Position numbers and translations under genes: made by a program. A model generated the notes under the pieces. It was not told where the DNA came from. It searched no databases and saw only the letters and a list, made by a program, of their open reading frames with translations. A stretch of DNA of 64,000 nucleotides, from the NCBI RefSeq assembly GCF_056746865.1, contig NZ_CM163382.1; one strand, written 5' to 3'. Shown here in pieces: positions 2,260 through 42,189 of the stretch; the stretch's first letter is position 1, and each line of letters starts with the position of its first letter.

Positions 2260-3209
<950 letters not shown>

Positions 3210-3235
<26 letters not shown>

Positions 3236-3938
3236 GATGCCAGCGCAGCAAGTTTGCCATCGCAAAGAGATATTTTTCGCTGGCTTCGTCGGAGGAGATG
3301 GGTGGAAACTCTGCGGTGATGCAATGCAGGTTGAGATCCGCACACCAACTGCCGAAAGAGCCAGGCGTTTCATAACCGACGCTGGTTACCAGAGGCAATT
3401 CAAACGCCTGGGCCAGCCATTCACCTAATTCGCTGTGTCTGGGATCTTCAATACAGGCCAGCGGATCGTGGAATGAGACCACCCAGGCGGGTTGAATGCG
3501 GTGTATAAGCTGGCACAGCGCCTGGGTTTCAGGTTCAGAGCCAGGTTTGTCACCTGTCAGCAATACGACATCACGTTCTTCAGCGGCGCTGTTCCAGCGA
3601 TAAACGGTTTCACCTTCCTTCCAATTCGCCGCCGGAAAGTTTCTGTTTAAATCCACACCATTAGCATTGGCCCGTAACCCCAACTGGCAGCCGTCAGGAT
3701 TCACACACAGCACCACATGATGACGGCGCAAAGAAGGTGTCAACGTCCGCAGAGCACAGGAGAGCGTGACGACCGAAGAGTTTTCATCACCGTGAGTGCC
3801 AGCCAGAATCAAACCACTTTCGCGGCTGGCTGCAGGGGCAGGAAACCAGATTAACGGCGCGCCCAATAATGAACGTCCGTAATGTTCTGTTCCGGGCGGA
3901 AATGCGCCGCGTTCGGCGCGTGGGCGGGTTACGGTCAT
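3210..3938 (-). CDS. mpaA: Murein tripeptide amidase A (zinc carboxypeptidase-like), 242 aa
   Basis: ORF 3210..3998; start set to internal Met (MTVTRPRAERGAF...) giving 242 aa; 3' end overlaps ycjG 3' end on opposite strand. Confidence 0.88.
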
Positions 3939-4033
3939 GATCGTCTCTGGTTCAGGAAGTATTACAGGCAGTGTTGTGCAAATTTTGCGGATTATCAAAT
4001 CCTTTTCTTCAACGCTATGTCATCGATCTTGTA

Positions 4034-4064
4034 TCACTTTTTTGCCGGAAGTTGTTTGCATTTT
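4034..4064. promoter_or_regulatory. Conserved ~30-bp motif upstream of mpaA (near-identical copy upstream of mppA)
   Basis: tcacttttttgccggaagttgtttgcatttt here versus tcacttttttgatggaagttgtttgcatttc at 7145..7175; 28/31 identical. Confidence 0.45.
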
Positions 4065-4228
4065 CATTGATGTGCAGATATTAGAATTGTCGTAATGTTA
4101 TATACATGGCGTATTTTATTCTTACTGGTTCTACACATGTTAATCGCATCTGATTGATCAGTTCACCTTAATAAGTTTAATAAATCGTACTGCACATAGT
4201 ACAGTACGAAGGTAGCTATATAATTGAT

Positions 4229-4867
4229 TTACATGAAGAATGGCTTATCGCCATCAGTCCCGGGCTGATTGATGCCTATATTCTCACCAATGTGTTTCTC
4301 AGGTTTATCGATGATATCTGTAATTAATGCTGCGACACTCTTACGTGATACGATCGTACCTTTGAATGGTTCATTGCGTGAGGTAAGCTCATAATCAATA
4401 ATATCTTCATCGGTCAGCCAGGCAGGGCGAAGAATTGTATATTCCAGTCCAGAAGCCTCAATTGCATCCGCAGCCCTGCGGAATGGTTTTAGGGGCTCAC
4501 CAATAACTGCATTATTCCATTCGCCAAATTTTCCTGGAACTTCATCATAAATACCGAGGGAAAGAACAAAGATCAGACGTTTAACATCACAGGCTTTCAT
4601 CGCAGCGATCACTGAATTTGCCTGAATATCTAAATCTTCCCCCGTAAGGTTGGCATACACAACATCCTGTCCCTGCATGGCCTGCTTCAGTGCCGCATGA
4701 TTCAGTACATCCCCCATAATAATCTTGCTATTAGTTGGATAGGGTTTGTGGATTTTTGCTGGCTGACGGGCAAATAAAGTTTGTTTAATGGTTTGTTTAT
4801 CTGCCAGTTGATTAATCACATGGCGGGCTATCTGACCGCCAGCACCAAGAATCAGTACATTTTTCAT
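4229..4867 (-). CDS. ymjC: NAD(P)-binding NmrA/SDR-like oxidoreductase, 212 aa, uninterrupted
   Basis: N-terminal Rossmann motif ILGAGGQIARHV; position between mpaA and ycjY; symbol assigned by synteny and is less certain than the product class. Confidence 0.7.
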   Translation of the reverse strand: MKNVLILGAGGQIARHVINQLADKQTIKQTLFARQPAKIHKPYPTNSKIIMGDVLNHAALKQAMQGQDVVYANLTGEDLDIQANSVIAAMKACDVKRLIFVLSLGIYDEVPGKFGEWNNAVIGEPLKPFRRAADAIEASGLEYTILRPAWLTDEDIIDYELTSRNEPFKGTIVSRKSVAALITDIIDKPEKHIGENIGINQPGTDGDKPFFM

Positions 4868-4937
4868 GAAACTTTTCCCAGATTATTGGCAGCAATATGC
4901 CAGGCCATATCACTATTACGGATTTGAATATGTTTCA

Positions 4938-5858
4938 TTACAGAGTTTCCTCAAAGAACGGCGCTAATACTGAAATTGCTTCAGCCACATAGACTTTGCC
5001 GTCATAAAGATCCATATGGTTTGCGCCTTCAACAATGTGATAGCGTTTATCCTGGCTTGATGCTCGATCGTACAGGTCGTCACTCATCCATTTGCTCCCT
5101 GCCTGGCTGCCCGCCACAATCTGTATCGGCTGAGTCAGGTACACTTCCGCCATATGGTAAGCATCATAGGTAATAATCTGGTTAAGGCTGCGCAAAGTAG
5201 TGTAACCCGGTGCTGTTGGATACTGCGCGCGAGGGGTGTGGTAATACTCCCAGGCCTGACGCAGTTCTTCGTTCGGCGCATCGGACTCCTTCATTGGTGC
5301 CAGTGGCATGGTGGCGTATTCTCCGCTGCTAATATCGCTGGTTCGGGCGTTTGAACCCGCGTCAACGTATGGTAGGGCATCAATAGATTTCACATTGTTT
5401 TCCCAACCATTACGGAACATCGAACCAATATTGACCGCACTAACAGTACCGATGGCCTTGATGCGGCGATCCTGAATTGCAGCATTGGCTGTATATCCTG
5501 CACCGGCACAAATTCCCATCGCACCAATTCGGCTATTGTCGACATAAGAAAGCGTTGTCAGATAATCAATCACGGCACTGACGTCTTCAGTACGAATGTA
5601 TGGGTTTTCTAACTGACGCGGCTCGCCGCCGCTTTCACCTTGATAAGATGCGTCATAAGCAATAGTGACAAATCCCTTTTCCGCCAGTTTTTCGGCATAG
5701 GTTCCAGCCGTTTGCTCTTTAACGCCCCCACCTGGGTGAGATACCACAATTGCCGGATACTGACGGGTTTCATCAAATTTTGGAGGGAAATAGATCACTG
5801 CAGACAAAGAGATGGTTGGATTATTGCTGTTAGTGAAGCTGACTTTATTATTCATCAT
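4938..5858 (-). CDS. ycjY: Alpha/beta hydrolase (dienelactone hydrolase-like), 306 aa
   Basis: ORF 4938..5870; start set to internal Met for 306 aa; GxSxG-like segment GAMGICAGAGY. Confidence 0.8.
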   Translation of the reverse strand: MMNNKVSFTNSNNPTISLSAVIYFPPKFDETRQYPAIVVSHPGGGVKEQTAGTYAEKLAEKGFVTIAYDASYQGESGGEPRQLENPYIRTEDVSAVIDYLTTLSYVDNSRIGAMGICAGAGYTANAAIQDRRIKAIGTVSAVNIGSMFRNGWENNVKSIDALPYVDAGSNARTSDISSGEYATMPLAPMKESDAPNEELRQAWEYYHTPRAQYPTAPGYTTLRSLNQIITYDAYHMAEVYLTQPIQIVAGSQAGSKWMSDDLYDRASSQDKRYHIVEGANHMDLYDGKVYVAEAISVLAPFFEETL

Positions 5859-5928
5859 TCCGTTCCTCATGGAGTTGTCGGTTCGTTTTAACGGTTGGTG
5901 ATATCACTATAGATATTGATCATTAAGT

Positions 5929-5971
5929 TGATTAGACCCAAAATCATGATTAGACCTATCATTTAAATGAT
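5929..5971. promoter_or_regulatory. Putative LysR-type operator in the ycjY-pgrR divergent region
   Basis: direct repeat tgattagacc x2 (5929..5938, 5947..5956) followed by perfect palindrome atcatttaaatgat (5958..5971), 25 bp upstream of the pgrR ATG. Confidence 0.4.
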
Positions 5972-5995
5972 TAATAGATTGTATGGAGATACTGA

Positions 5996-6895
5996 ATGAA
6001 GCGTGAAGAAATCGCTGATCTGATGGCGTTTGTCGTCGTTGCAGAGGAGCGTAGCTTCACTCGCGCAGCAGCCCGCCTGAGCATGGCGCAGTCAGCTTTA
6101 AGCCAGATAGTGCGCCGTATAGAAGAACGATTGGGATTGCGGCTTCTGACACGAACCACGCGCAGCGTTGTACCCACTGAAGCGGGCGAGCATCTTTTGT
6201 CTGTTCTTGGCCCTATGTTGCATGACATAGATTCTGCCCTGACATCCCTGAGCGATCTGCAGAACCGCCCATCCGGGACAATACGTATTACTACTGTAGA
6301 ACATGCAGCAAAAACGATATTGTTACCAGCTATGCGCACATTCCTGAAATCGCATCCTGAAATTGATATCCAGCTTACCATTGATTATGGTTTGACCGAT
6401 GTCGTTTCTGAACGTTTTGATGCAGGCGTCCGTCTGGGTGGGGAGATGGATAAAGATATGATCGCCATTCGAATCGGGCCAGATATACCAATGGCTATTG
6501 TTGGCTCACCGGATTATTTTTCTCGTCGAAGTGCTCCAACGTCAGTGTCACAATTAATAGATCATCAGGCAATTAATTTGTATCTTCCCACATCGGGTAC
6601 AGCAAATCGCTGGAGATTAATACGCGGTGGACGTGAAGTTCGTGTTCGCATGGAAGGTCAGCTTTTACTGAATACGATAGACCTGATCATTGATGCTGCA
6701 ATTGATGGGCATGGATTGGCGTATCTACCTTATGATCAGGTTGAGCGGGCTATTAAAGAAAAAAAACTGATACGTGTTTTGGATAAATTCACACCAGATT
6801 TACCCGGTTATCACCTGTACTATCCACACCGTCGACATGCTGGCTCGGCATTCTCATTATTTATAGATAGGCTGAAGTATAAAGGTGCTGTTTAG
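5996..6895 (+). CDS. pgrR: LysR-family transcriptional regulator PgrR (YcjZ), 299 aa
   Basis: N-terminal HTH MKREEIADLMAFVVVAEERSFTRAAARLSMAQSALSQ; LysR substrate-binding domain; synteny. Confidence 0.85.
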   Translation: MKREEIADLMAFVVVAEERSFTRAAARLSMAQSALSQIVRRIEERLGLRLLTRTTRSVVPTEAGEHLLSVLGPMLHDIDSALTSLSDLQNRPSGTIRITTVEHAAKTILLPAMRTFLKSHPEIDIQLTIDYGLTDVVSERFDAGVRLGGEMDKDMIAIRIGPDIPMAIVGSPDYFSRRSAPTSVSQLIDHQAINLYLPTSGTANRWRLIRGGREVRVRMEGQLLLNTIDLIIDAAIDGHGLAYLPYDQVERAIKEKKLIRVLDKFTPDLPGYHLYYPHRRHAGSAFSLFIDRLKYKGAV

Positions 6896-7144
6896 CACTA
6901 CTTGCTGATACATTAATTTAATTCTTCTCTTAACGTATTCTCAGTTCCTTTCAACGTTTTGGTCATTTTTTATTCTTCGTACAATGGCGACAGATGCTGA
7001 TTATGATACCGAAAACGGGTTTGAACGTGCGAAGCCCGAACGTAGTGTTCGGAGTTCTATGTGCTTTACCGCATTTTGGAGACTATTATTTACACTAAAT
7101 CTGATTTGATATATTGATACTTAAAACATTTGATGCTTCCTTTG

Positions 7145-7175
7145 TCACTTTTTTGATGGAAGTTGTTTGCATTTC
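7145..7175. promoter_or_regulatory. Conserved ~30-bp motif upstream of mppA (copy of the mpaA-upstream motif)
   Basis: 28/31 identity to 4034..4064; lies 57-87 bp upstream of the mppA start. Confidence 0.45.
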
Positions 7176-7231
7176 TTTAAGGCGAAACAAATAATTACGC
7201 ATCAATTTTAATGTCGGTTAGAGGGAAACTT

Positions 7232-8845
7232 ATGAAGCACTCTGTTTCAGTCACGTGTTGTGCGCTGTTGGTCAGCAGCATTTCTCTTTCGTATGCTGCA
7301 GAAGTTCCGAGCGGCACAGTACTGGCAGAGAAGCAGGAGCTGGTGCGCCACATTAAAGATGAGCCTGCGTCGCTGGATCCCGCTAAAGCCGTGGGCCTGC
7401 CAGAGATTCAGGTCATTCGCGATCTGTTTGAAGGACTGGTGAATCAGAACGAGAAAGGGGAGATTGTCCCCGGCGTTGCGACTCAGTGGAAAAGTAATGA
7501 CAACCGTATCTGGACTTTTACCCTGCGCGATAACGCAAAATGGGCGGATGGCACACTGGTAACGGCGCAAGATTTTGTCTACAGCTGGCAACGTCTGGTG
7601 GACCCTAAAACGCTATCGCCATTTGCATGGTTTGCCGCGCTGGCGGGAATCAACAACGCACAGGCGATTATTGATGGTAAAGCTACGCCTGACCAGCTTG
7701 GCGTCACCGCAGTTGATGCCCATACTTTGAAAATCCAGCTTGATAAACCGTTGCCGTGGTTTGTGAATTTAACCGCTAACTTTGCCTTCTTCCCGGTGCA
7801 AAAAGCCAACGTAGAAAGCAGTAAAGAGTGGACGAAACCCGGAAAACTGATCGGTAATGGCGCTTATGTTCTTAAAGAGCGCGTAGTCAATGAAAAACTG
7901 GTCGTGGTACCGAATACCCATTATTGGGATAACGCCAAAACGGTGCTGCAAAAAGTGACTTTCCTGCCAATTAATCAGGAATCCGCAGCCACTAAGCGTT
8001 ACCTCGCGGGGGATATTGATATCACCGAATCCTTCCCGAAAAATATGTATCAGAAGCTGTTGAAGGATATTCCGGGGCAGGTTTATACGCCGCCGCAGCT
8101 CGGGACCTATTATTATGCGTTTAACACGCAAAAAGGGCCGACGGCAGATCAGCGCGTTCGCCTGGCATTAAGTATGACGATAGATCGCCGCCTGATGACC
8201 GAAAAAGTGTTGGGGACGGGCGAAAAGCCAGCGTGGCATTTTACACCAGATGTTACCGCGGGATTTACGCCGGAACCTTCGCCGTTTGAACAAATGAGTC
8301 AGGAAGAACTGAATGCGCAGGCAAAAACTTTGTTGAGCGCCGCTGGTTATGGTCCGCAAAAACCGCTGAAGCTGACGCTTTTGTATAACACTTCAGAAAA
8401 CCATCAAAAAATTGCGATTGCTGTAGCATCAATGTGGAAAAAGAACCTTGGCGTAGATGTTAAATTGCAAAATCAGGAATGGAAAACCTATATCGATAGC
8501 CGTAACACCGGCAATTTTGATGTTATCCGAGCCTCGTGGGTAGGGGATTATAATGAACCCTCCACTTTCCTGACATTATTAACGTCAACGCATTCAGGAA
8601 ATATTTCACGCTTTAACAATCCGGCATACGACAAAGTACTGGCCCAGGCATCAACGGAAAATACCGTTAAAGCGCGTAATGCCGATTACAACGCGGCAGA
8701 AAAAATCCTCATGGAGCAAGCACCGATTGCACCAATTTATCAATATACCAATGGACGATTAATCAAGCCGTGGCTGAGAGGTTATCCCATTAATAACCCG
8801 GAAGATGTGGCGTACAGTCGGACTATGTATATTGTGAAGCATTGA
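7232..8845 (+). CDS. mppA: Periplasmic murein tripeptide-binding protein (OppA paralogue), 537 aa
   Basis: ORF 7211..8845; start set to internal Met for 537 aa; signal peptide MKHSVSVTCCALLVSSISLSYA; family 5 substrate-binding protein. Confidence 0.88.
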   Translation: MKHSVSVTCCALLVSSISLSYAAEVPSGTVLAEKQELVRHIKDEPASLDPAKAVGLPEIQVIRDLFEGLVNQNEKGEIVPGVATQWKSNDNRIWTFTLRDNAKWADGTLVTAQDFVYSWQRLVDPKTLSPFAWFAALAGINNAQAIIDGKATPDQLGVTAVDAHTLKIQLDKPLPWFVNLTANFAFFPVQKANVESSKEWTKPGKLIGNGAYVLKERVVNEKLVVVPNTHYWDNAKTVLQKVTFLPINQESAATKRYLAGDIDITESFPKNMYQKLLKDIPGQVYTPPQLGTYYYAFNTQKGPTADQRVRLALSMTIDRRLMTEKVLGTGEKPAWHFTPDVTAGFTPEPSPFEQMSQEELNAQAKTLLSAAGYGPQKPLKLTLLYNTSENHQKIAIAVASMWKKNLGVDVKLQNQEWKTYIDSRNTGNFDVIRASWVGDYNEPSTFLTLLTSTHSGNISRFNNPAYDKVLAQASTENTVKARNADYNAAEKILMEQAPIAPIYQYTNGRLIKPWLRGYPINNPEDVAYSRTMYIVKH

Positions 8846-8895: not shown

Positions 8896-9927
8896 TTAGC
8901 GACCCTGGTCCGGCGGTGTAATGTTATCCATATACAGCGTCTGGCTGGGGAAGGCAAAGTCCGCGCCGTGTGACTGTACAATATCGATAATCTTCAAATA
9001 AACGTCTTGCTGTGCAGCAAGCCATTCAGCCCATACCGTGGTTTTGGTAAAGCAATAAACCATAATATTCAATGAGGAGTCAGCAAACTGGTTGAAATAA
9101 ACCAGTAAGGTTTGTCGCTGGTCAATGGCCGGGTGATTTTTCAGCATCTCACGTACGGCTTCGACAATAACGCCCACTTTTGCCGCATCCTCATAACGTA
9201 AACCAATGGTCGTGGTAATGCGCCGGTTGGTCATTCGTCCTGGGTTTTCTACGCTGATTGACGAAAACAGCGAGTTCGGTACGTACAACGGACGATTATC
9301 AAAAGTCGTAATCTTGGTAATTCGCCAGCCAATTTCCGATACTGTACCTTCGATATTTCTGTCCGGTGAACGGATCCAGTCGCCAATACTAAAAGGACGG
9401 TCGAAATAGAGCATAATCCCGGAAAAGAAGTTACTCAGAATATCTTTACCGGCCATACCGACAGCCAGACCACCAATACCACCAAAGGTCAACAAGCCAG
9501 AAAGGCTCATGCCGAAATGTTCGCCATAAAGCAGAACAAGCACCACAATAATGGTGATTTTGATGATACGCGACATAATCCGCGCACTGGTGATATCGCG
9601 ACCTTTTTTAATCTGCTGTTTTTCAAACTGATTAATCAGCAGAAATAGCTTAATCGTCAGAATAACCGCAATCAGGGACGTACAGATAAAATCGATAACG
9701 CCTGGGGTGATAAATTTGAGTTTATAGTTTTCTATAACATAATTAATGATGCTACCAACAGCACTGATAATTATGGTGTAGATTAAAAATTGCACCGCAT
9801 GGAATAAAAAACCTTTTCTTTTACGATTTCCGCGGCGAAACCAAAAGCTCATCAGAATCAATGCTGCGCAGCTACCGAAAATAATGACCAGATTAAGCGC
9901 ATTATTTGTAAACAGTTCAGCGATCAT
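8896..9927 (-). CDS. ynaI: MscS-family mechanosensitive channel, 343 aa
   Basis: multi-TM N-terminus and MscS-like beta domain; synteny. Confidence 0.85.
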
Positions 9928-10170
9928 TGTTTTATCAGGCTCCTCCAGATAATTGTCGTCATGCCGGAAACCCCTGGCGGGGCTATTTTACCGCGACAAT
10001 TCATTGAGATCATCAATAGTCAGGGAAGGAAGTAGCAACATTAGCTAACTAATCAATGCGTTGATTGTAAATCCAGCTAAGAGGTGAGGTTTTCAGAGCA
10101 GACAACGGTGAAATGTCATGGTATTGTTACGTTTAGGTAACAAGAAATTTGTCTGCACAAGGATTACATC

Positions 10171-10428
10171 ATGATTATGGCGAAACTGAAGTCAGCGAAA
10201 GGGAAGAAATTTCTCTTTGGTTTGTTGGCGGTTTTCATTATTGCGGCGTCGGTTGTGACTCGCGCGACCATCGGCGGCGTGATAGAACAGTACAATATTC
10301 CGCTGTCTGAGTGGACGACATCAATGTATGTGATTCAGTCATCAATGATTTTTGTTTATAGCCTGGTCTTTACTGTGTTGCTGGCAATCCCGTTGGGAAT
10401 TTATTTCCTTGGCGGCGAAGAGCAGTAA
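10171..10428 (+). CDS. ynaJ: Small inner-membrane protein (DUF2534), 85 aa
   Basis: two predicted TM helices; position between ynaI and uspE. Confidence 0.75.
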   Translation: MIMAKLKSAKGKKFLFGLLAVFIIAASVVTRATIGGVIEQYNIPLSEWTTSMYVIQSSMIFVYSLVFTVLLAIPLGIYFLGGEEQ

Positions 10429-10437
10429 GTAAAAAAT

Positions 10438-10457
10438 AGGCCCGATAACTCGGGCCT
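10438..10457. terminator. Hairpin between convergent ynaJ and uspE
   Basis: aggcccg-ataact-cgggcct inverted repeat. Confidence 0.5.
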
Positions 10458-10477
10458 TGTCAGTTATTGAAGAGTCG

Positions 10478-11428
10478 TTAATCGTCTTCTTCGTCATCCA
10501 GTTCAACGGGTGTCTGATACTGGTCAGGTTTAATGACCAGCAGGTCGCAGCGAAGATGATCAATCACCTGTTCTGCCGTGTTGCCGAGGAATGCTGCTGA
10601 AATACCGGTGCGTCCTACCGTGCCCAGAACCACAATCCCCGCCTGTAAGTGCTCCGCCAAATCAGGAATCACCTCTTCTGGCAGACCTTTTTCTACGTGC
10701 GTCATGTTTTCATTAATGCCGAATTTCTGCCGCAGGGCTTTCATTGCCAGCAAATGTTGCCCACGAATGGCATCGTTATAAACGCTCGGATCAAATTCCG
10801 GCAGTTCAATCGCGATATTAATTGGCGTTACGGGATAAGCGCCAACCAGATGAACTTCGGTATGGTTGACTTGTTCCGCCAGTTCGATCGTCTCTTTGAC
10901 CAGTTTTTCATTGAGCGCATTATGGTACGGCTCTTCACTGGCGAGATTCACCGCCACCAGCGCCTTACCCCCTTCCGGCCACGGCTGGTCTTTCACCATC
11001 CACACCGGGCTTGGGCATTTGCGTAACAGATGCCAGTCCGTTGGCGTAAAAATCACCGCTTCCAGACGGTCATGTTGGTGCGCCATTTTTAGCACCAAAT
11101 CGTGCCCGCCGCTGATCACTTCCTGAATGATGGCTTCGAAAGGACGGTTATGCCAGACCACTTTAATTTCAATGGGAACGCCAGCATTGAGATAATATTT
11201 TGCCTGCTCGTGGATCCAGTCTGTACGCTGGCTGATGACGCCCTGACGCATAGCGGTACGTTCGTCCGGAGAGAGCAGGGTGGTCATTTCGTATGAGAAG
11301 TCATAGATCGGCAAAAAGGCTTTAATTTTGCCACCAATCCGTTGATGTAAATAAACAGCTCGCCGCAATGCTGGTTGGTCGTCCTGGTTAGGATCGATAA
11401 CAACGAGCATGTTCTGATACATAGCCAT
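10478..11428 (-). CDS. uspE: Universal stress protein E (tandem Usp domains), 316 aa
   Basis: ORF 10478..11455; start set to internal Met ([15 protein letters not shown]...) for 316 aa. Confidence 0.9.
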
Positions 11429-23819: not shown

Positions 23820-24755
23820 TTATTTCACTTCAACCACATTCAGTCGTAACTCATCCAACTGATTTTCATCTTCTTCAGGCTGCCAACCCGCCGGTTGTAG
23901 AGGGATCTCTTCGCGATCAAACGCCAGATCACCCCCGTTAACCACTTCAGAACCGTGGGTAATGCCTTTGAAATCGAACAGGTTGGTATCGCACAGATGC
24001 GACGGCACCACATTCTGCATCGCGCTGAACATCGTCTCGATACGCCCCGGATAACGTTTATCCCAGTCACGCAACATGTCAGCAATCACCTGACGTTGCA
24101 GGTTAGGCTGTGAACCGCACAGGTTGCACGGAATAATCGGGAACGCTTTTGCATCGGCAAAGCGCTGAATATCTTTCTCGCGGCAGTAGGCCAGAGGGCG
24201 AATCACGATATGTTTGCCATCATCGCTCATCAGTTTCGGAGGCATACCTTTCATCTTGCCGCCGTAGAACATATTTAAGAACAACGTTTGCAGGATATCG
24301 TCACGATGGTGACCCAGCGCGATCTTCGTCGCTCCCAGTTCCGTTGCGGTACGATAAAGGATACCGCGACGAAGACGAGAACACAGTGAGCAAGTGGTTT
24401 TGCCCTCCGGAATCTTCTCTTTCACGATACCGTAAGTGTTCTCTTCAACAATCTTGTACTCAACGCCCAGCTTTTCAAGATACTCGGGCAGAACGTGTTC
24501 CGGGAAGCCCGGTTGCTTTTGATCGAGGTTAACAGCCACCAGCGAAAAATTGATTGGCGCGCTTTGCTGCAAATTGCGCAGAATTTCCAGCATGGTATAG
24601 CTGTCTTTACCCCCGGAGAGGCAAACCATGATGCGATCGCCTTCTTCAATCATATTGAAGTCAGCAATGGCTTCGCCCACGTTACGACGCAGACGTTTTT
24701 GTAATTTGTTCAGGTTGTATTGTTCTTTCTTACTAATTTCTTGATTTTGCGACAT
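23820..24755 (-). CDS. ttcA: tRNA 2-thiocytidine(32) synthetase TtcA, 311 aa
   Basis: PP-loop SGGKDS and CxxC motifs; synteny. Confidence 0.92.
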
Positions 24756-24930
24756 TTAAAAGCGACTCAATTCGTTATATGGCATCAGAAGAGTATGCGT
24801 CATGCCGGAACGCCCAGCATAAGAAATCTGATATAAAAACTGTGGCGTGTATGGTACGGATTAGAGGGGAAAATGTCAGCACATTTGCGAAATGAATCAA
24901 AAAGCCCGCAGCAATGTGCGGGCGTTAGTG

Positions 24931-25446
<516 letters not shown>

Positions 25447-36369: not shown

Positions 36370-39300
36370 ATGCAAAGGAAAAAATTGTTGTCTGTGTGTG
36401 TGGCGATGGCATTGAGCGGTCAGACATGGGCAACTGATACATCGATCCTGGATATAACTGATGACACCCGGAAATCCAGCAAGATCACATGTCCGGCGAA
36501 TATTCATTCTATTAGCAAAGAGCAGTTAGCTAAATTACCATCAGAATGTCGGGATTCTGATGACAGCGCCGTAATGAGCTGGACTGCAGCTGGCCTGGTT
36601 GCAGTCGTTACAGGAGCCGCGGTGATGGCGCTTAATGATGGTGATCATCATGACAGTTCAGAACCAGATGACGGTGGTGATACACCTGTTCCACCAGATG
36701 ACGGTGGTGATACACCTGTTCCACCAGATGACGGTGGTGATACACCTGTTCCTCCAGATGACGGTGGCGATACACCAGTTCCACCAGACGATGGTGGCGA
36801 TACACCAGTTCCACCAGACGACGGTGGTGATACACCTGTTCCTCCAGATGACGGTGGCGACGTCACTCCACCAAAAGAGCCCAAAATCTTCAATAACAGT
36901 GTCACATTCGACGAAGACAAAGGCACGCTGCAAATTCGCAATGCCACCTTTACCTACAGCAAAAACAGTGATGGAAGTTACACCCTGACGGCTGAAGATG
37001 GCCGAACCTCTATTGTGCAGGGCTGGGATGTCGACACCGATGCCAATACGGTAGAAATTACCGGCGTGAATAACCTTGGCGGTATGACGTGGTGTTACGG
37101 TAAAGACGGCATTATCTATATCACCAAAACCGTCGGCGCAACGGTGGATGACCCCGCGAACAGCAACGTATTTAACCTCAGCGATGCGGTGCTCACCGAC
37201 CAGGGCGGTAATGCCGCGCTGAATGGCGCGACGGTGATTGAAATAAACGGCAGCAGGATCGCCCTTAATAACGACGGTGATATTTCTGCTACGGGAAAAG
37301 ATTCTGTGGTTGTGGCGATAACCGGAAACGATATTACCGTTAACAATAACGGCCATATGGTTGTCGATGGCGGCACAGCGGGCGTGGTTAACGGCGATCG
37401 TGCAATCCTGAATAACCGCGGTGATGCAGTGATCACTAACGGCGGCACGGGTGTCATTGTGACGGGTGACAACGCGGTTATCAACAACATGGGGCAAAGC
37501 GATATTGATGGCGACAACTCGGTATCGGTAAAAGTTGCAGGAAACGCAACCAGAATCAGAATGGAAGGCGGGATCAATGTCAGCGGTGGCGCGCATGGCA
37601 TTGATGCCACCGGTGATAATAACGAAGTCAGCAACAAGGGCAACATTTCGGTGGTGGATGCGCATTCCACGGGCGTGCTGCTGAACGGCGATCGCGCGTC
37701 ATTCATTAATATGGGTGATATTAACGTTAGCGGAGGTGCAGCGGACGATCACTCTAATGGTGTGCAGATCAACGGCGATAACAGTACCTTTATCAACGTT
37801 GGAGATTTAAATGCCGACGACAGGGCGACCGGGGTGAAAATTAACGGTGACGCCAGCGACATTGCCCTGGCCGGGGCGATGCATGTCGGGGATTTTTCCA
37901 CCGGGCTGGAGGTGATGGGTAAAAACAATGATCTGTCGTTGTCCACCAATATGATGGATGTCACCGGGAAACAGTCCACCGGGGTGACCATTACAGGTGA
38001 TGATAATACCATTGATATCACCGGTGATATGGTCGTTGATCAAAACTCTGTCGGGGCGAAAATTGTCGGCGATCGCGTTTCGTTGCAACAGAAAGGTGAT
38101 ATTACCGTTAACGGTGCGGGGCACGGCGTTGAAGTCAGCGGTAGTAAGACGACAATCAATAATCAGGGCAAACTGACCGTAAAAGATCAAGACTCAATCG
38201 GTATCGTTATCACCGGAGATGACGCGCAATTTACTACCGTGGGTGAGATTGATGTCTCGCTGAACGGTACGGGTGTTGCGATCAGCGGCGATCGTGAACA
38301 AGTGAATTTGAGCGGTGATATAAATGTCATTCAGGAGCGTGACGGCAGCGGTACTTTCCAGGGCGGAACGGGCATCAGCATAATGAGCAACGACAGCAGT
38401 ATGCTGTTGACGGGAAACATTAATGTGACGTCCAGTATGGGGGACCAACCGTCCACCTCACCCCAGTCGTTAACCGGCGTTACCATCGAGGGGGAAAACA
38501 ATACTGTCGATCTGGAAGGCGACATCAATATTACTGTCGATTCGGATTACCTGGGGGATGAAAACAGTCTTTACGGCGTGGTTGTTTTGGGTACAAACAA
38601 CACCATCAATCTCGATGGTGGTATCAATATCTCTGGTGATAGTGGTGGACATACTATCAAAGGTGTGCAGGTAACAGGAAATAATACCGTCAATATAAGT
38701 GGTCATTCCGTAATGAATACCCGACAGATATTGGGATCCTTCTCTCTGATTTCGGTGGCTGATGGCGGGAATGTCATATTTGATGAAAACGCGATAACCG
38801 AGATTCAGAGTTCAGTGAGAGATAGTGACTATCTTTTTTTCGATGCATCGTTAATTGTTGCTACGGGAAACCAGTCTGTTATTCAGAACAACGGCATTAT
38901 TAATACAACCGATGCTCAAGAATTAATGATGGCGAATTCGGGGGCGCAAGTTGTCAATGCCGGGGTGATTAATATCAGGCCAGATGCTGAATCACACACT
39001 TTCTTTGCTGGAATGATGGCAAGAAGCGATGACTCGCAGGCAAAAAATGCCTCCGGAGGAACAATCAATCTGACATCCATTACCCGGCCTTTTAGCAGCG
39101 GAGGATTTAACGAGCGCCCGATCAAATGGTATCACAACACGGGTTATGCCTTGTTGGCCAGTAATTACGGATCGGTAATCAATGAAACAGGAGCAACCAT
39201 TAATTTGCATGGTGCAGGAACCTATGGTGTTTCCGCTTCAAAAGGAACGGCGACCAATGCGGGCGAGATAAATGTCGACGGCTTTGTTCCAATAGTAGAT

Positions 39301-42189
39301 GAAAACGGTAATATTATTGATGAAACTTACTGGCAGACCAATTCCGTATATCTGATGGGGGGCGGGATGTTGGCAGGTTCAACGGATACCGGCGACGGTG
39401 ATGCTAAAGCGGTGAATACCGGTATCATCAACGTTAAGAATGAAGGCTTCGGCATGCTGGCGATGAACGGTGGGACCGTTGTAAACCAAGGGACAATCAA
39501 TCTCACCGCCGATGAGGGCGTGACGAAGCAGCAAGATAACCAACTGTTCGCGATGGGAGCCATTCAGGGTGGTCTGGCGATTAATGACCAGGATGGGGTT
39601 ATTAATATTAACACTGATATTGGCCAGGCGTTTTATAAAGATGGCACCGGCACCATTCTCAACTATGGAAAAATTAATCTTTTCGGTAATCCAATGGATG
39701 AAAGTGATTCCCACATTGGCGTTACGCCGGATGACAAAGATATTCTCAGTGAGCTGTCTGGCAGCGGCGAGAGCATCAGTAAAACTACAACTAGCGACGG
39801 TTTTATCGCAGTTAATAACCTGGCAAACTATGGCGACGAAACGCTTAACGGCGACGTTATAGCAAATGGCTGGATATTCAACCAACCTGATGCCAGCCTA
39901 ACAATCAACGGCGAACTGAGCGTAAACCAGGGGTTGGAAAACAGTGGTCACCTGGATGTTGACAGCATTAACAGCAAAACCACGATATATAACCGTGAAA
40001 CAGGGAGCATAACAACCGATCTGCTGACGTTGAATGGCGCGGTTTCCTTCTTTAATGAAGGCGAATTTAATGGTTCAATTACCGGAGACAGCTACCAACA
40101 GAATGTGGTGAATACCGATGAAATGACGGTGACCGAAGATGGCCACTCACTCGTCAACGGAAGTTTCCTGTTCTTCAATGAGGCTGGCGCGACCCTGACA
40201 AATAGCGGTAATGCGGTAACGGGCGGGGAAAACGCGATTATTCATGTAACCAGAACCAGTGATTCTGTTTCGCAGGTTAACCGTGGCACCATCACGGCCA
40301 CAAATGGCTATAGCGCAATCAAAACTGAAAATACTGGCTCGAACAGTAACGGGAAATGGATTTGGAATACGGAAACAGGAGTGATAAATGGTATTAATCC
40401 TGCTGCACCGTTGGTTGATTTAGGACGAGGTTATAACTTTGCTAACGCTGGCGTTATTAATGTTCAGGGCGATAATGCAGTGGGCATCAGTGGCGGCACA
40501 ACCAGCTATGTTGTCCAGTTGGTGAACAGTGGCATCATTAATGTGGGTACTGAGCAGGGGCAACTGGATGGAACCAACGGCGAAGGTTTAATTGGTATTA
40601 AGGGCAATGGTCGGGAAACGACAATTAATAACACGCAAACGGGTGTGATTAATGTCTATGCCGATAACTCCTGGGCGTTTGGTGGGCAAACGAAAGCCAT
40701 CATTAACAACGGTGAAATTAATCTGCTGTGTGACACCGGATGCGATATTTATGCTCCAGGAACGACGGGGGCGCAAAACGATCACAACGGTACTGCGGAT
40801 ATTACCGTACCAGAGGCATCAACCACGCCGCCACAAGGTAATGTTCCAACGCCACCTGTCGATTCAAATGCACCGCAACTGCTGAGCAACTATACCATTG
40901 GTACCAACAGCGACGGGAGTTCGGGTACGCTCAGCGCGAATAACCTGGTTATTGGCGACAACGTGAGTGTTAACGCCGGGTTTAGTGCAGGAACTGCGGA
41001 CACCACCGTTGTCGTTAACGATGTATTCAAAGGCGAAAACATCAGCGGTGTGGATAACATCGTTTCCTCTACTGTTGTCTGGAACGCTAAAGGCAGCACC
41101 GATGCCAGCGGCAACGTTGACGTCACTATGAGCAAAAACGCTTATACCGATGTGGCGACCGATGCTTCGGTGAATGACGTCGCGAAAGCACTGGATGCGG
41201 GTTACACCAACAACGAGCTGTATACCAGCCTGAACGTCGGCACGACTGCCGAACTGAACAGTGCCCTGAAACAGGTCAGCGGTAGCCAGGCGACCACGGT
41301 ATTCCGCGAAGCGCGCGTGCTAAGCAACCGCTTTAGCATGCTGGCGGATGCCGCACCGAAAGTGGGTAACGGTCTGGCGTTCAACGTTGTTGCGAAAGGC
41401 GATCCGCGCGCGGAGCTGGGGAACAATACCGAGTACGACATGCTGGCATTGCGTAAAACCATCGACCTGAGCGAAAGCCAGACGATGAGTCTGGAGTACG
41501 GTATCGCGCGCCTCGATGGCGACGGTGCGCAGAAAGCGGGTGATAATGGCGTTACAGGCGGTTATAGCCAGTTCTTTGGCCTGAAACATCAGATGTCCTT
41601 CGACAACGGCATGAACTGGAATAACGCATTGCGTTATGACGTTCACAACCTTGACAGCAGCCGTTCGATTGCATTTAGCAACACAAACAAAACGGCTGAT
41701 ACCGACGTGAAGCAGCAGTACCTGGAGTTCCGCAGCGAAGGGGCGAAGACTTTCGAACCGAGCGAAGGACTGAAGGTTACGCCATATGCGGGTGTTAAAC
41801 TGCGTCACACACTGGAAGGTGGCTATCAAGAGCGCAATGCCGGAGACTTTAACCTGAATATGAACAGTGGCAGCGAAACGGCGGTGGACAGCATCGTCGG
41901 GTTGAAACTGGATTACGCAGGTAAAGACGGCTGGAGCGCTAGCGCTACGCTGGAAGGCGGGCCGAACCTGAGCTACGCGAAGAGCCAGCGTACGGCAAGC
42001 CTGGCAGGCGCAGGCAGTCAGCACTTTAATGTCGATGACGGTCAGAAGGGCGGCGGCATCAACAGCCTGGCAAGCGTCGGCGTGAAGTACAGCAGCAAAG
42101 AAAGTTCGCTGAATCTGGATGCTTACCACTGGAAAGAGGACGGCATCAGCGATAAAGGCGTGATGCTGAACTTCAAGAAAACGTTCTAA
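36370..42189 (+). CDS. ydbA: Large autotransporter (type Va) adhesin-like protein, 1939 aa, uninterrupted
   Basis: signal peptide, six full DDGGDTPVPP decapeptide repeats, long Gly/Asn/Thr-rich beta-helix-like passenger, C-terminal approx 280-aa beta-barrel ending ...VMLNFKKTF. Confidence 0.85.
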   Translation: MQRKKLLSVCVAMALSGQTWATDTSILDITDDTRKSSKITCPANIHSISKEQLAKLPSECRDSDDSAVMSWTAAGLVAVVTGAAVMALNDGDHHDSSEPDDGGDTPVPPDDGGDTPVPPDDGGDTPVPPDDGGDTPVPPDDGGDTPVPPDDGGDTPVPPDDGGDVTPPKEPKIFNNSVTFDEDKGTLQIRNATFTYSKNSDGSYTLTAEDGRTSIVQGWDVDTDANTVEITGVNNLGGMTWCYGKDGIIYITKTVGATVDDPANSNVFNLSDAVLTDQGGNAALNGATVIEINGSRIALNNDGDISATGKDSVVVAITGNDITVNNNGHMVVDGGTAGVVNGDRAILNNRGDAVITNGGTGVIVTGDNAVINNMGQSDIDGDNSVSVKVAGNATRIRMEGGINVSGGAHGIDATGDNNEVSNKGNISVVDAHSTGVLLNGDRASFINMGDINVSGGAADDHSNGVQINGDNSTFINVGDLNADDRATGVKINGDASDIALAGAMHVGDFSTGLEVMGKNNDLSLSTNMMDVTGKQSTGVTITGDDNTIDITGDMVVDQNSVGAKIVGDRVSLQQKGDITVNGAGHGVEVSGSKTTINNQGKLTVKDQDSIGIVITGDDAQFTTVGEIDVSLNGTGVAISGDREQVNLSGDINVIQERDGSGTFQGGTGISIMSNDSSMLLTGNINVTSSMGDQPSTSPQSLTGVTIEGENNTVDLEGDINITVDSDYLGDENSLYGVVVLGTNNTINLDGGINISGDSGGHTIKGVQVTGNNTVNISGHSVMNTRQILGSFSLISVADGGNVIFDENAITEIQSSVRDSDYLFFDASLIVATGNQSVIQNNGIINTTDAQELMMANSGAQVVNAGVINIRPDAESHTFFAGMMARSDDSQAKNASGGTINLTSITRPFSSGGFNERPIKWYHNTGYALLASNYGSVINETGATINLHGAGTYGVSASKGTATNAGEINVDGFVPIVDENGNIIDETYWQTNSVYLMGGGMLAGSTDTGDGDAKAVNTGIINVKNEGFGMLAMNGGTVVNQGTINLTADEGVTKQQDNQLFAMGAIQGGLAINDQDGVININTDIGQAFYKDGTGTILNYGKINLFGNPMDESDSHIGVTPDDKDILSELSGSGESISKTTTSDGFIAVNNLANYGDETLNGDVIANGWIFNQPDASLTINGELSVNQGLENSGHLDVDSINSKTTIYNRETGSITTDLLTLNGAVSFFNEGEFNGSITGDSYQQNVVNTDEMTVTEDGHSLVNGSFLFFNEAGATLTNSGNAVTGGENAIIHVTRTSDSVSQVNRGTITATNGYSAIKTENTGSNSNGKWIWNTETGVINGINPAAPLVDLGRGYNFANAGVINVQGDNAVGISGGTTSYVVQLVNSGIINVGTEQGQLDGTNGEGLIGIKGNGRETTINNTQTGVINVYADNSWAFGGQTKAIINNGEINLLCDTGCDIYAPGTTGAQNDHNGTADITVPEASTTPPQGNVPTPPVDSNAPQLLSNYTIGTNSDGSSGTLSANNLVIGDNVSVNAGFSAGTADTTVVVNDVFKGENISGVDNIVSSTVVWNAKGSTDASGNVDVTMSKNAYTDVATDASVNDVAKALDAGYTNNELYTSLNVGTTAELNSALKQVSGSQATTVFREARVLSNRFSMLADAAPKVGNGLAFNVVAKGDPRAELGNNTEYDMLALRKTIDLSESQTMSLEYGIARLDGDGAQKAGDNGVTGGYSQFFGLKHQMSFDNGMNWNNALRYDVHNLDSSRSIAFSNTNKTADTDVKQQYLEFRSEGAKTFEPSEGLKVTPYAGVKLRHTLEGGYQERNAGDFNLNMNSGSETAVDSIVGLKLDYAGKDGWSASATLEGGPNLSYAKSQRTASLAGAGSQHFNVDDGQKGGGINSLASVGVKYSSKESSLNLDAYHWKEDGISDKGVMLNFKKTF
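36667..36870 (+). repeat. In-frame 30-bp tandem repeat array inside ydbA (six full units plus a degenerate seventh)
   Basis: gatgacggtggtgatacacctgttccacca repeated with synonymous variation; encodes DDGGDTPVPP. Confidence 0.9.

Follow-up and report, generated by a model that had tools for sequence, protein, structure and literature searches.

Human biliverdin-IX-beta reductase, which is also a flavin reductase (BLVRB, BVR-B), and the anaerobilin reductase ChuY of Escherichia coli are NADPH-dependent hydride-transfer enzymes that lack the tyrosine–lysine pair of the classical short-chain dehydrogenases/reductases (SDRs). Both are single-domain folds of ∼205–215 residues belonging to the NAD_binding_10 family, and they are the nearest characterised folds to the 212-residue reductase examined here, with TM-scores of 0.75–0.80 at a sequence identity of only ∼20%. 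BLVRB (PDB 1HDO) was recovered with E-values of 3e-15 by Foldseek and 2.5e-5 by phmmer, and ChuY (PDB 5FFQ and 5GUY) with values of 4e-11 and 4.5e-6, respectively. The genetic settings differ, however, since the ChuY gene is part of a haem-utilisation operon, whereas the present reductase is encoded with two alpha/beta hydrolases and a LysR-family regulator, and no link between the reductase and tetrapyrroles or flavins was found in this analysis. The closest solved relative that is not an ortholog is a short-chain dehydrogenase/reductase of Veillonella parvula (PDB 3R6D, 4IPT, 4HNG and 4HNH), which shares ∼30% identity over the full length, including a C-terminal G(T/D)..DKP(F/Y)F motif; as a structural-genomics target without an assigned function, it adds nothing concerning the substrate. 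The top Foldseek match overall is an ortholog from Shigella flexneri, PDB 3QVO, released in 2011 (E 1.5e-34, TM-score 0.87–0.93), to which all 212 residues of the reductase align with only three amino acid substitutions. That structure was deposited under the name 'Rossmann-fold NAD(P)-binding family protein / NmrA family protein', with its function left unassigned.

The MppA/MpaA/YcjG pathway, which was worked out in K-12, proceeds by uptake, amide hydrolysis and epimerisation of murein peptide, and needs no redox step. YcjY of K-12 has a solved structure (PDB 5XB6); the protein has been put forward, as a guess, as a cPHB polymerase (PMC3709699), and over-expression of ycjY leads to filamentation (PMC3614548). 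Regulon tables for K-12 list ycjY-ymjDC-mpaA as an operon controlled by PgrR, which is called a regulator of peptidoglycan recycling (PMC5934670, PMC5210515), and K-12 is also the source for the naming of PgrR in that role (PMC3946193). Additionally, a pangenome study linked resistance to lactic acid with 'ymjC', a name that may stand there for the fragment or for the full gene (PMC9602453). The literature on ymjC, ymjD, ycjY, PgrR, 3QVO and 5XB6 yielded no biochemical function for either the reductase or YcjY, and no papers citing 3QVO or 5XB6 were found in the literature searched.

The window, by which is meant the whole stretch of 64,000 nucleotides that was analysed, has the following genes at and around the reductase locus.

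3210..3938, minus strand: mpaA, murein tripeptide amidase, a resident gene downstream of the cassette and hence of the SDR gene (NCBIfam PRK10602, E 2e-144, and annotation)
4229..4867, minus strand: intact SDR gene, the full-length form of K-12 ymjC (open reading frame, Pfam NAD_binding_10 and annotation, WP_000800177.1)
4864..4938, minus strand: ymjD-like open reading frame of 24 codons, an in-frame deletion remnant of hyd2 (sequence comparison with intact Hyd2)
4938..5858, minus strand: ycjY, 306-aa alpha/beta hydrolase, first gene of the cassette operon, upstream of the SDR gene (domain searches and annotation)
5996..6895, plus strand: pgrR (ycjZ), LysR-family regulator, divergent from ycjY (domain searches and annotation)
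7232..8845, plus strand: mppA, murein tripeptide binding protein, a resident gene flanking the cassette at its other end (annotation)

An uninterrupted 212-aa ymjC gene between mpaA and ycjY had been reported in the sequence-only reading of this DNA, and the gene is indeed a continuous ATG-to-stop frame of 212 codons on the minus strand, with the flanking genes confirmed. The best-matching genome is that of the uropathogenic strain 118UI, which is 100% identical over window positions 3900–5000, and in which the protein encoded at the same coordinates is annotated as 'SDR family oxidoreductase' (WP_000800177.1). The intact gene is already known, being common, annotated and structurally solved. 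With regard to the neighbouring hydrolase, the UilS lactonase model was the top NCBIfam match of YcjY, but its score of 87 bits against a cut-off of 400 led to that identity not being assigned.

The genomic context of the reductase was examined in other species using one genome per species, which yielded 80 loci, spread over alpha-, beta- and gamma-proteobacteria, Myxococcus, Acidobacteria and some further groups; at 61 of them the flanking sequence was sufficient. The partner found most regularly is Hyd2, the name given here to a 310-aa alpha/beta hydrolase whose gene, where present in E. coli, lies between those for the reductase and YcjY. An ortholog of Hyd2 was found near the reductase at 51 of the 61 loci, and directly upstream of it in 39, while a YcjY ortholog was near the reductase at 39 loci and at least one of the two hydrolases at 54. 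A LysR homologue was similarly close at 51 of 61. None of the 61 adequately flanked loci, and none of the 80 overall, has MpaA, MppA or YcjG within 8 kb of the reductase. Around homologues of 67–83% identity, the order LysR (divergent), YcjY-type, Hyd2-type, reductase recurs in Salmonella/Klebsiella aerogenes, Serratia, Stenotrophomonas and Pseudomonas aeruginosa, often with genes for classical SDRs, flavodoxin-like proteins or an OYE-type flavin reductase coming after this core; additional redox genes of these kinds are nearby at 33 of the 80 loci. In Burkholderia a Hyd2-type gene, a classical SDR and the reductase are found together, with a YcjY-type gene further downstream and no LysR gene called. 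The window itself carries pgrR divergent from ycjY, a hyd2 remnant and the SDR gene, and so belongs to the cassette class as this was defined in the present analysis.

Judged from its surroundings, the cassette looks mobile and horizontally spread: that of P. aeruginosa adjoins conjugative-transfer genes (TrbI, CagX, VirB8 and TrbL), and a Cupriavidus plasmid carries two copies (loci L040 and L094). A separate observation concerns the Salmonella/Klebsiella aerogenes loci (L007–L009, ∼8990–10980), in which genes whose products match domains of nucleotide-second-messenger anti-phage defence, either AGS_C with PycTM or SMODS with SLATT, are located a few genes downstream of the cassette, which suggests that in these organisms it may sit in a variable genomic island.

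The conserved neighbourhood identifies the paralogous hydrolases YcjY and Hyd2, together with the regulator PgrR, as the functional partners of the reductase, so that a substrate is better sought among small molecules of ester, lactone or conjugated type than in peptidoglycan. The reading preferred here, to which a probability of roughly 0.6 is attached, is that the product is a functional reductase using NAD(P)H, and that its gene closes an accessory cassette which is under LysR control, has spread horizontally and would conduct a hydrolase/reductase route on a small molecule. The enzyme belongs to the NAD_binding_10, or biliverdin-IX-beta-reductase-like, branch of atypical SDRs, and is encoded last in an order consisting of the divergent regulator, the hydrolases YcjY and Hyd2, and then the reductase. 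One or both of the alpha/beta hydrolases would open an ester, lactone or C–C bond of the small molecule, whereupon the reductase, with NADPH as donor, would reduce a carbonyl, quinone or other conjugated group by hydride transfer, either in the substrate or in the product; the reverse order, with the reductase acting before the hydrolase, is also allowed for. PgrR, for its part, would sense this compound, presumably an ester, a lactone or a conjugated molecule. The cassette is in decay in E. coli, the window having lost Hyd2 while keeping the reductase, and K-12 having lost in addition the 166 C-terminal residues of the reductase. The parts of this reading that were shown here are the integrity of the gene, its family, the insertion, the conserved neighbourhood and purifying selection, whereas cofactor preference, reaction order and substrate class are inferred.

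The hyd2 gene is carried by O157:H7, O145, O111 and many commensal strains, the encoded protein being 42% identical to YcjY. Independent decay is frequent, hyd2 having a frameshift in O157:H7 and an internal stop in one O145 strain. In the window, the cassette is already partly decayed, with hyd2 reduced to a remnant in which MKHIQIRNSDMAWHIAAN corresponds to Hyd2 residues 1–18 and the LG that follows it to the last two residues of Hyd2. The ymjD gene is likewise composed of hyd2 codons 1–18, joined through one junction codon to the final two codons of hyd2, and the junction of the in-frame deletion is identical in the window and K-12. K-12 ymjD terminates at a TAA after 21 aa, whereas the window has AAA at that position, and the frame extends over 24 codons to the start of the SDR gene. 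Since the ATG of the remnant overlaps the ycjY stop (TAATG), and the TGA stop of the remnant overlaps the SDR ATG (ATGA), ycjY, the ymjD-like frame and the SDR gene are tied into one operon. Recombination between the hydrolase paralogues was considered as a cause of hyd2 loss and rejected, as at 42% protein identity the two genes share no long DNA match, and the event is a simple in-frame deletion inside hyd2.

A further 12 nt located just before the reductase start have been lost from both the window and K-12. Strains with hyd2 retain them (ATGAGAAATATT) in frame before the reductase ATG, as is evident on comparing locus L004 (3440–3530) with window positions 4850–4950, and many database homologues of the reductase have 216 residues as opposed to the 212 of the window. 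On this comparison, the N-terminus of the window reductase is probably four residues shorter than that of the ancestral protein.

In K-12 MG1655, the interval between mpaA and ycjY contains only ymjC (b4525, 60 aa) and ymjD (b4673, 21 aa). The statement in the sequence-only reading that this locus is a fragment or pseudogene in K-12 was correct, with neither the blastn alignment nor the MG1655 annotation revealing an identical intact gene there: window positions 4069..4728 (660 bp) are missing, which deprives K-12 of the reductase's 166 C-terminal codons and stop, a hairpin and 160 nt of spacer. The K-12 YmjC protein consists of reductase residues 1–46, which are identical, followed by 14 read-through residues from what was formerly spacer upstream of mpaA. 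The deletion junction has ∼1 nt of microhomology, and the deletion end at window position 4069 is 5 nt from the cassette boundary (repeat edge 4063). The sequence of events would seem to have run from a four-gene form (pgrR, ycjY, hyd2 and SDR), via loss of hyd2 to give the window type, to the K-12 type by means of the 660-bp deletion. The ymjC and ymjD genes of K-12 can be accounted for down to the single base as what two deletions, one after the other, left of a cassette of four genes.

Among 5426 complete E. coli genomes surveyed, the SDR-bearing segment that is missing in K-12 was present in 2900 (53%). The hyd2 gene was also present in 1272 (23%), and the exact arrangement of the window was observed in 1640 (30%), while most of the remaining genomes, about 45%, have the K-12-like state. 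The intact reductase is, then, the commoner state in E. coli, while its loss from ∼45% of genomes indicates that it is dispensable. In one strain the reductase gene is split by IS5. Between two and eight matches to the locus, depending on the query, were on plasmid-labelled records, and these could be either misassigned replicons or true transfers.

Since Hyd2, the partner found most regularly, has been deleted from the window, this strain may no longer be able to operate the original pathway, and the reductase could conceivably be an intact but functionally orphaned relic that has yet to decay. The reduction of Hyd2 to a 24-codon remnant would fit such a scenario, as would the repeated decay within E. 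coli, encompassing the damaged hyd2 alleles of O157:H7 and O145 and the SDR gene split by IS5 or truncated in ∼45% of genomes. It is nevertheless considered unlikely: comparison with three other E. coli alleles revealed 7–8 synonymous but only 0–3 non-synonymous changes, with dN/dS values of ∼0.1 within E. coli and of 0.03–0.05 against Salmonella, Serratia and Pseudocitrobacter, and the reductase is thus under purifying selection. Moreover, 1640 genomes retain the arrangement of the window type, the gene is still translationally coupled to the open reading frames before it, and YcjY, as a paralogue of Hyd2 that is still present, could cover the hydrolytic step.

That the product is an enzyme of the reductase type is suggested by its family membership and conserved residues. 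The sequence-only reading had described an NAD(P)-binding, NmrA/SDR-like protein with an N-terminal Rossmann motif, and domain searches upheld this description. The Rossmann motif is LILGAGGQIA, with the glycine-rich dinucleotide motif G8-A-G-G11-Q-I-A14 present on the Rossmann unit. Pfam NAD_binding_10, the family of NAD(P)H-binding atypical SDRs, matches residues 8–189 over model positions 1–184 of 184 with 184.1 bits against a cut-off of 27.2 (E 3e-54), a whole-model score above the gathering threshold that places the protein in this family. Weaker Pfam matches are confined to the N-terminal part (NmrA, 1.3e-10; Epimerase, 1.6e-7), and that to NmrA (PF05368), which spans residues 2–100 of the 212-aa protein over model positions 3–104 of 298, falls short of membership. 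The adh_short family is absent from the Pfam matches of the reductase, and none of the NCBIfam functional models scored above its curated cut-off.

Conservation was assessed in 13 homologues of 67–83% identity from alpha-, beta- and gamma-proteobacteria. Residues invariant in this set include Gly8, Gly11, Arg34, L104-G-I-Y-D-E109 (within the motif SLGIYDE), Arg130 and Arg131, as well as Trp117, Asn118, Trp150, Tyr159, Arg175, His192 and a C-terminal DGDKP.F motif, with Ala14 and Ser103 kept in at least 90% of the homologues. In the AlphaFold model (mean pLDDT 82), a strand at residues 2–7 is followed by a helix at 12–21, and strand beta-2 comprises residues 27–33, such that Arg34 is the residue directly after beta-2. 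An arginine in this position of a Rossmann fold is associated with a preference for NADPH, and the reductase probably prefers that cofactor, as judged purely from the invariant Arg34 of the predicted model. The confidence of the model is low at the invariant loop 105–125, as would be expected if this were a mobile lid over the substrate, and the shape of the active site is therefore not readable from the model. The region apparently corresponding to the YxxxK of classical SDRs, as placed by eye, is K127-P-F129-R-R-A-A-D134, with no tyrosine or lysine at the expected spacing; the sole conserved tyrosine near this segment is Y107 of SLGIYDE.

The presence of PFRRAAD where a classical SDR would have YxxxK, again as placed by eye, might be taken to indicate that the protein does not catalyse a reaction at all, and instead acts as an NmrA-like, NAD(P)-sensing regulator that modulates, for example, PgrR without reducing a substrate, as could the partial NmrA match at residues 2–100 and the deposition of 3QVO as an 'NmrA family protein'. 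Such a role is improbable, however, given that NAD_binding_10 is matched over its full length and far more strongly, and that the 212-aa protein matches only positions 3–104 of the 298-position NmrA model. BVR-B and ChuY, the closest characterised structures, are enzymes despite also being without the Tyr–Lys pair. Furthermore, invariant polar residues are situated outside the dinucleotide site (Y107, D108, E109, W117, N118, R130, R131, W150, Y159, R175 and H192), and the gene is in an operon with enzymes.

The position of the cassette next to mpaA was examined by comparison with related genera. The cassette is absent at this position in Citrobacter, Enterobacter mori and Klebsiella oxytoca, where ∼185 bp separate the divergently transcribed mppA and mpaA; ycjG, tpx and tyrR come next, just as they do in E. 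coli. In the window, by comparison, the cassette lies between two direct repeats.

4027..4063, no strand: 37-nt direct repeat, mpaA-side copy, 86% identical to 7138–7174
7138..7174, no strand: 37-nt direct repeat, mppA-side copy, at a spacing of 3111 nt from the mpaA-side copy

The repeat sequence is present as a single copy in the mppA–mpaA intergenic region of Citrobacter, and the alignment of that region to the window splits, with one side resuming at 7145 and the other at 4063, and with ∼30 nt matching both. The GC content is 0.39–0.49 inside the block as opposed to 0.51–0.56 in its flanks. Taken together, the direct repeats, the low GC content and the uninterrupted mppA–mpaA arrangement in three genera mark pgrR-ycjY-(hyd2)-SDR as an inserted foreign block, and the alignments are best explained by its insertion into the mppA/mpaA control region in the Escherichia lineage, with duplication of the target sequence. 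Since the cassette appears to be an insertion, its adjacency to mpaA would reflect the insertion site as opposed to a shared function.

These data bear on the suggestion in the sequence-only reading that an intact gene could clarify the function of a ycjY-ymjC-mpaA unit in murein-peptide metabolism, on which the intact reductase proved to have no evident bearing. A role in murein-peptide catabolism with MpaA, for example on a product of L-Ala-gamma-D-Glu-meso-Dap breakdown, is very improbable, in that the location of the reductase gene directly upstream of mpaA on the same strand and the PgrR-controlled ycjY-ymjDC-mpaA operon of the K-12 regulon tables are countered by the lack of MpaA, MppA or YcjG within 8 kb at all 61 species loci, by the retention of mppA-mpaA-ycjG without the cassette in Citrobacter, Enterobacter and Klebsiella, by the insertion between direct repeats, by the gap and terminator-like hairpin that separate the SDR gene from mpaA, and by the absence of the reductase from K-12, the strain in which the MppA/MpaA/YcjG pathway was worked out.

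At the opposite end of the block, the RefSeq annotation of several strains places a 75-bp fragment named 'epoxyqueuosine reductase QueH' between pgrR and mppA (L003 6974–7048, L004 6473–6547 and L005 6491–6565). This corresponds to the pgrR–mppA spacer of the window, and might be either a leftover of what once surrounded the cassette or an artefact of annotation.

The gap between the SDR stop and mpaA is 290 nt, and contains the following element.

4185..4209, minus strand: terminator-like hairpin, an 11-bp stem followed by UUUAUUAA, starting 20 nt past the SDR stop

The 96 nt around the hairpin fold with −20.5 kcal/mol (z −2.4), and from its sequence the hairpin is a putative terminator. It is unchanged in four E. 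coli alleles, which are too alike for this conservation to be informative. No terminator was found after the reductase in the Serratia locus, and an Rfam scan of window positions 3000–7400 returned nothing credible (best E-values 0.23 and 0.33). The hairpin is inside the segment deleted from K-12, where no terminator-like site is left between ycjY and mpaA. Additionally, the K-12 junction creates a sigma-70-like TCCACA-16-TAAAAT, with TAAAAT as the −10-like hexamer, directed towards mpaA (L001 4721–4748), while a promoter scan of the window identified no sigma-70-like promoter upstream of mpaA.

A tentative interpretation, one that is more doubtful than otherwise, is that the operon link between PgrR and mpaA is a by-product of the K-12 deletion, and that PgrR is the cassette's own regulator, having arrived together with the hydrolases and the reductase, and senses an unrelated small molecule, namely the cassette substrate. 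The 660-bp deletion, in taking with it the 3' end of the SDR gene, the hairpin and 160 nt of spacer, would have fused the cassette operon to mpaA, whereas in the ∼53% of E. coli with an intact reductase, mpaA would be transcribed mainly from its native promoter. Results obtained in K-12 on the control of mpaA by PgrR may not transfer to half of E. coli strains, the strains concerned being those that keep the reductase and the downstream hairpin, many pathogenic strains among them.

Two other regions of the window appear to differ from K-12. An intact gene for a 1939-aa autotransporter is annotated in the matching strain at window positions 36370–42189 on the plus strand. The K-12 counterpart, ydbA, is a pseudogene broken by insertion sequences, and the autotransporter gene would be another case of a gene that is intact in the window where that of K-12 is broken. 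At positions 23820–25365, ttcA is followed directly by uspF. The Rac prophage adjoins ttcA in K-12, and the window strain thus appears to be without Rac.
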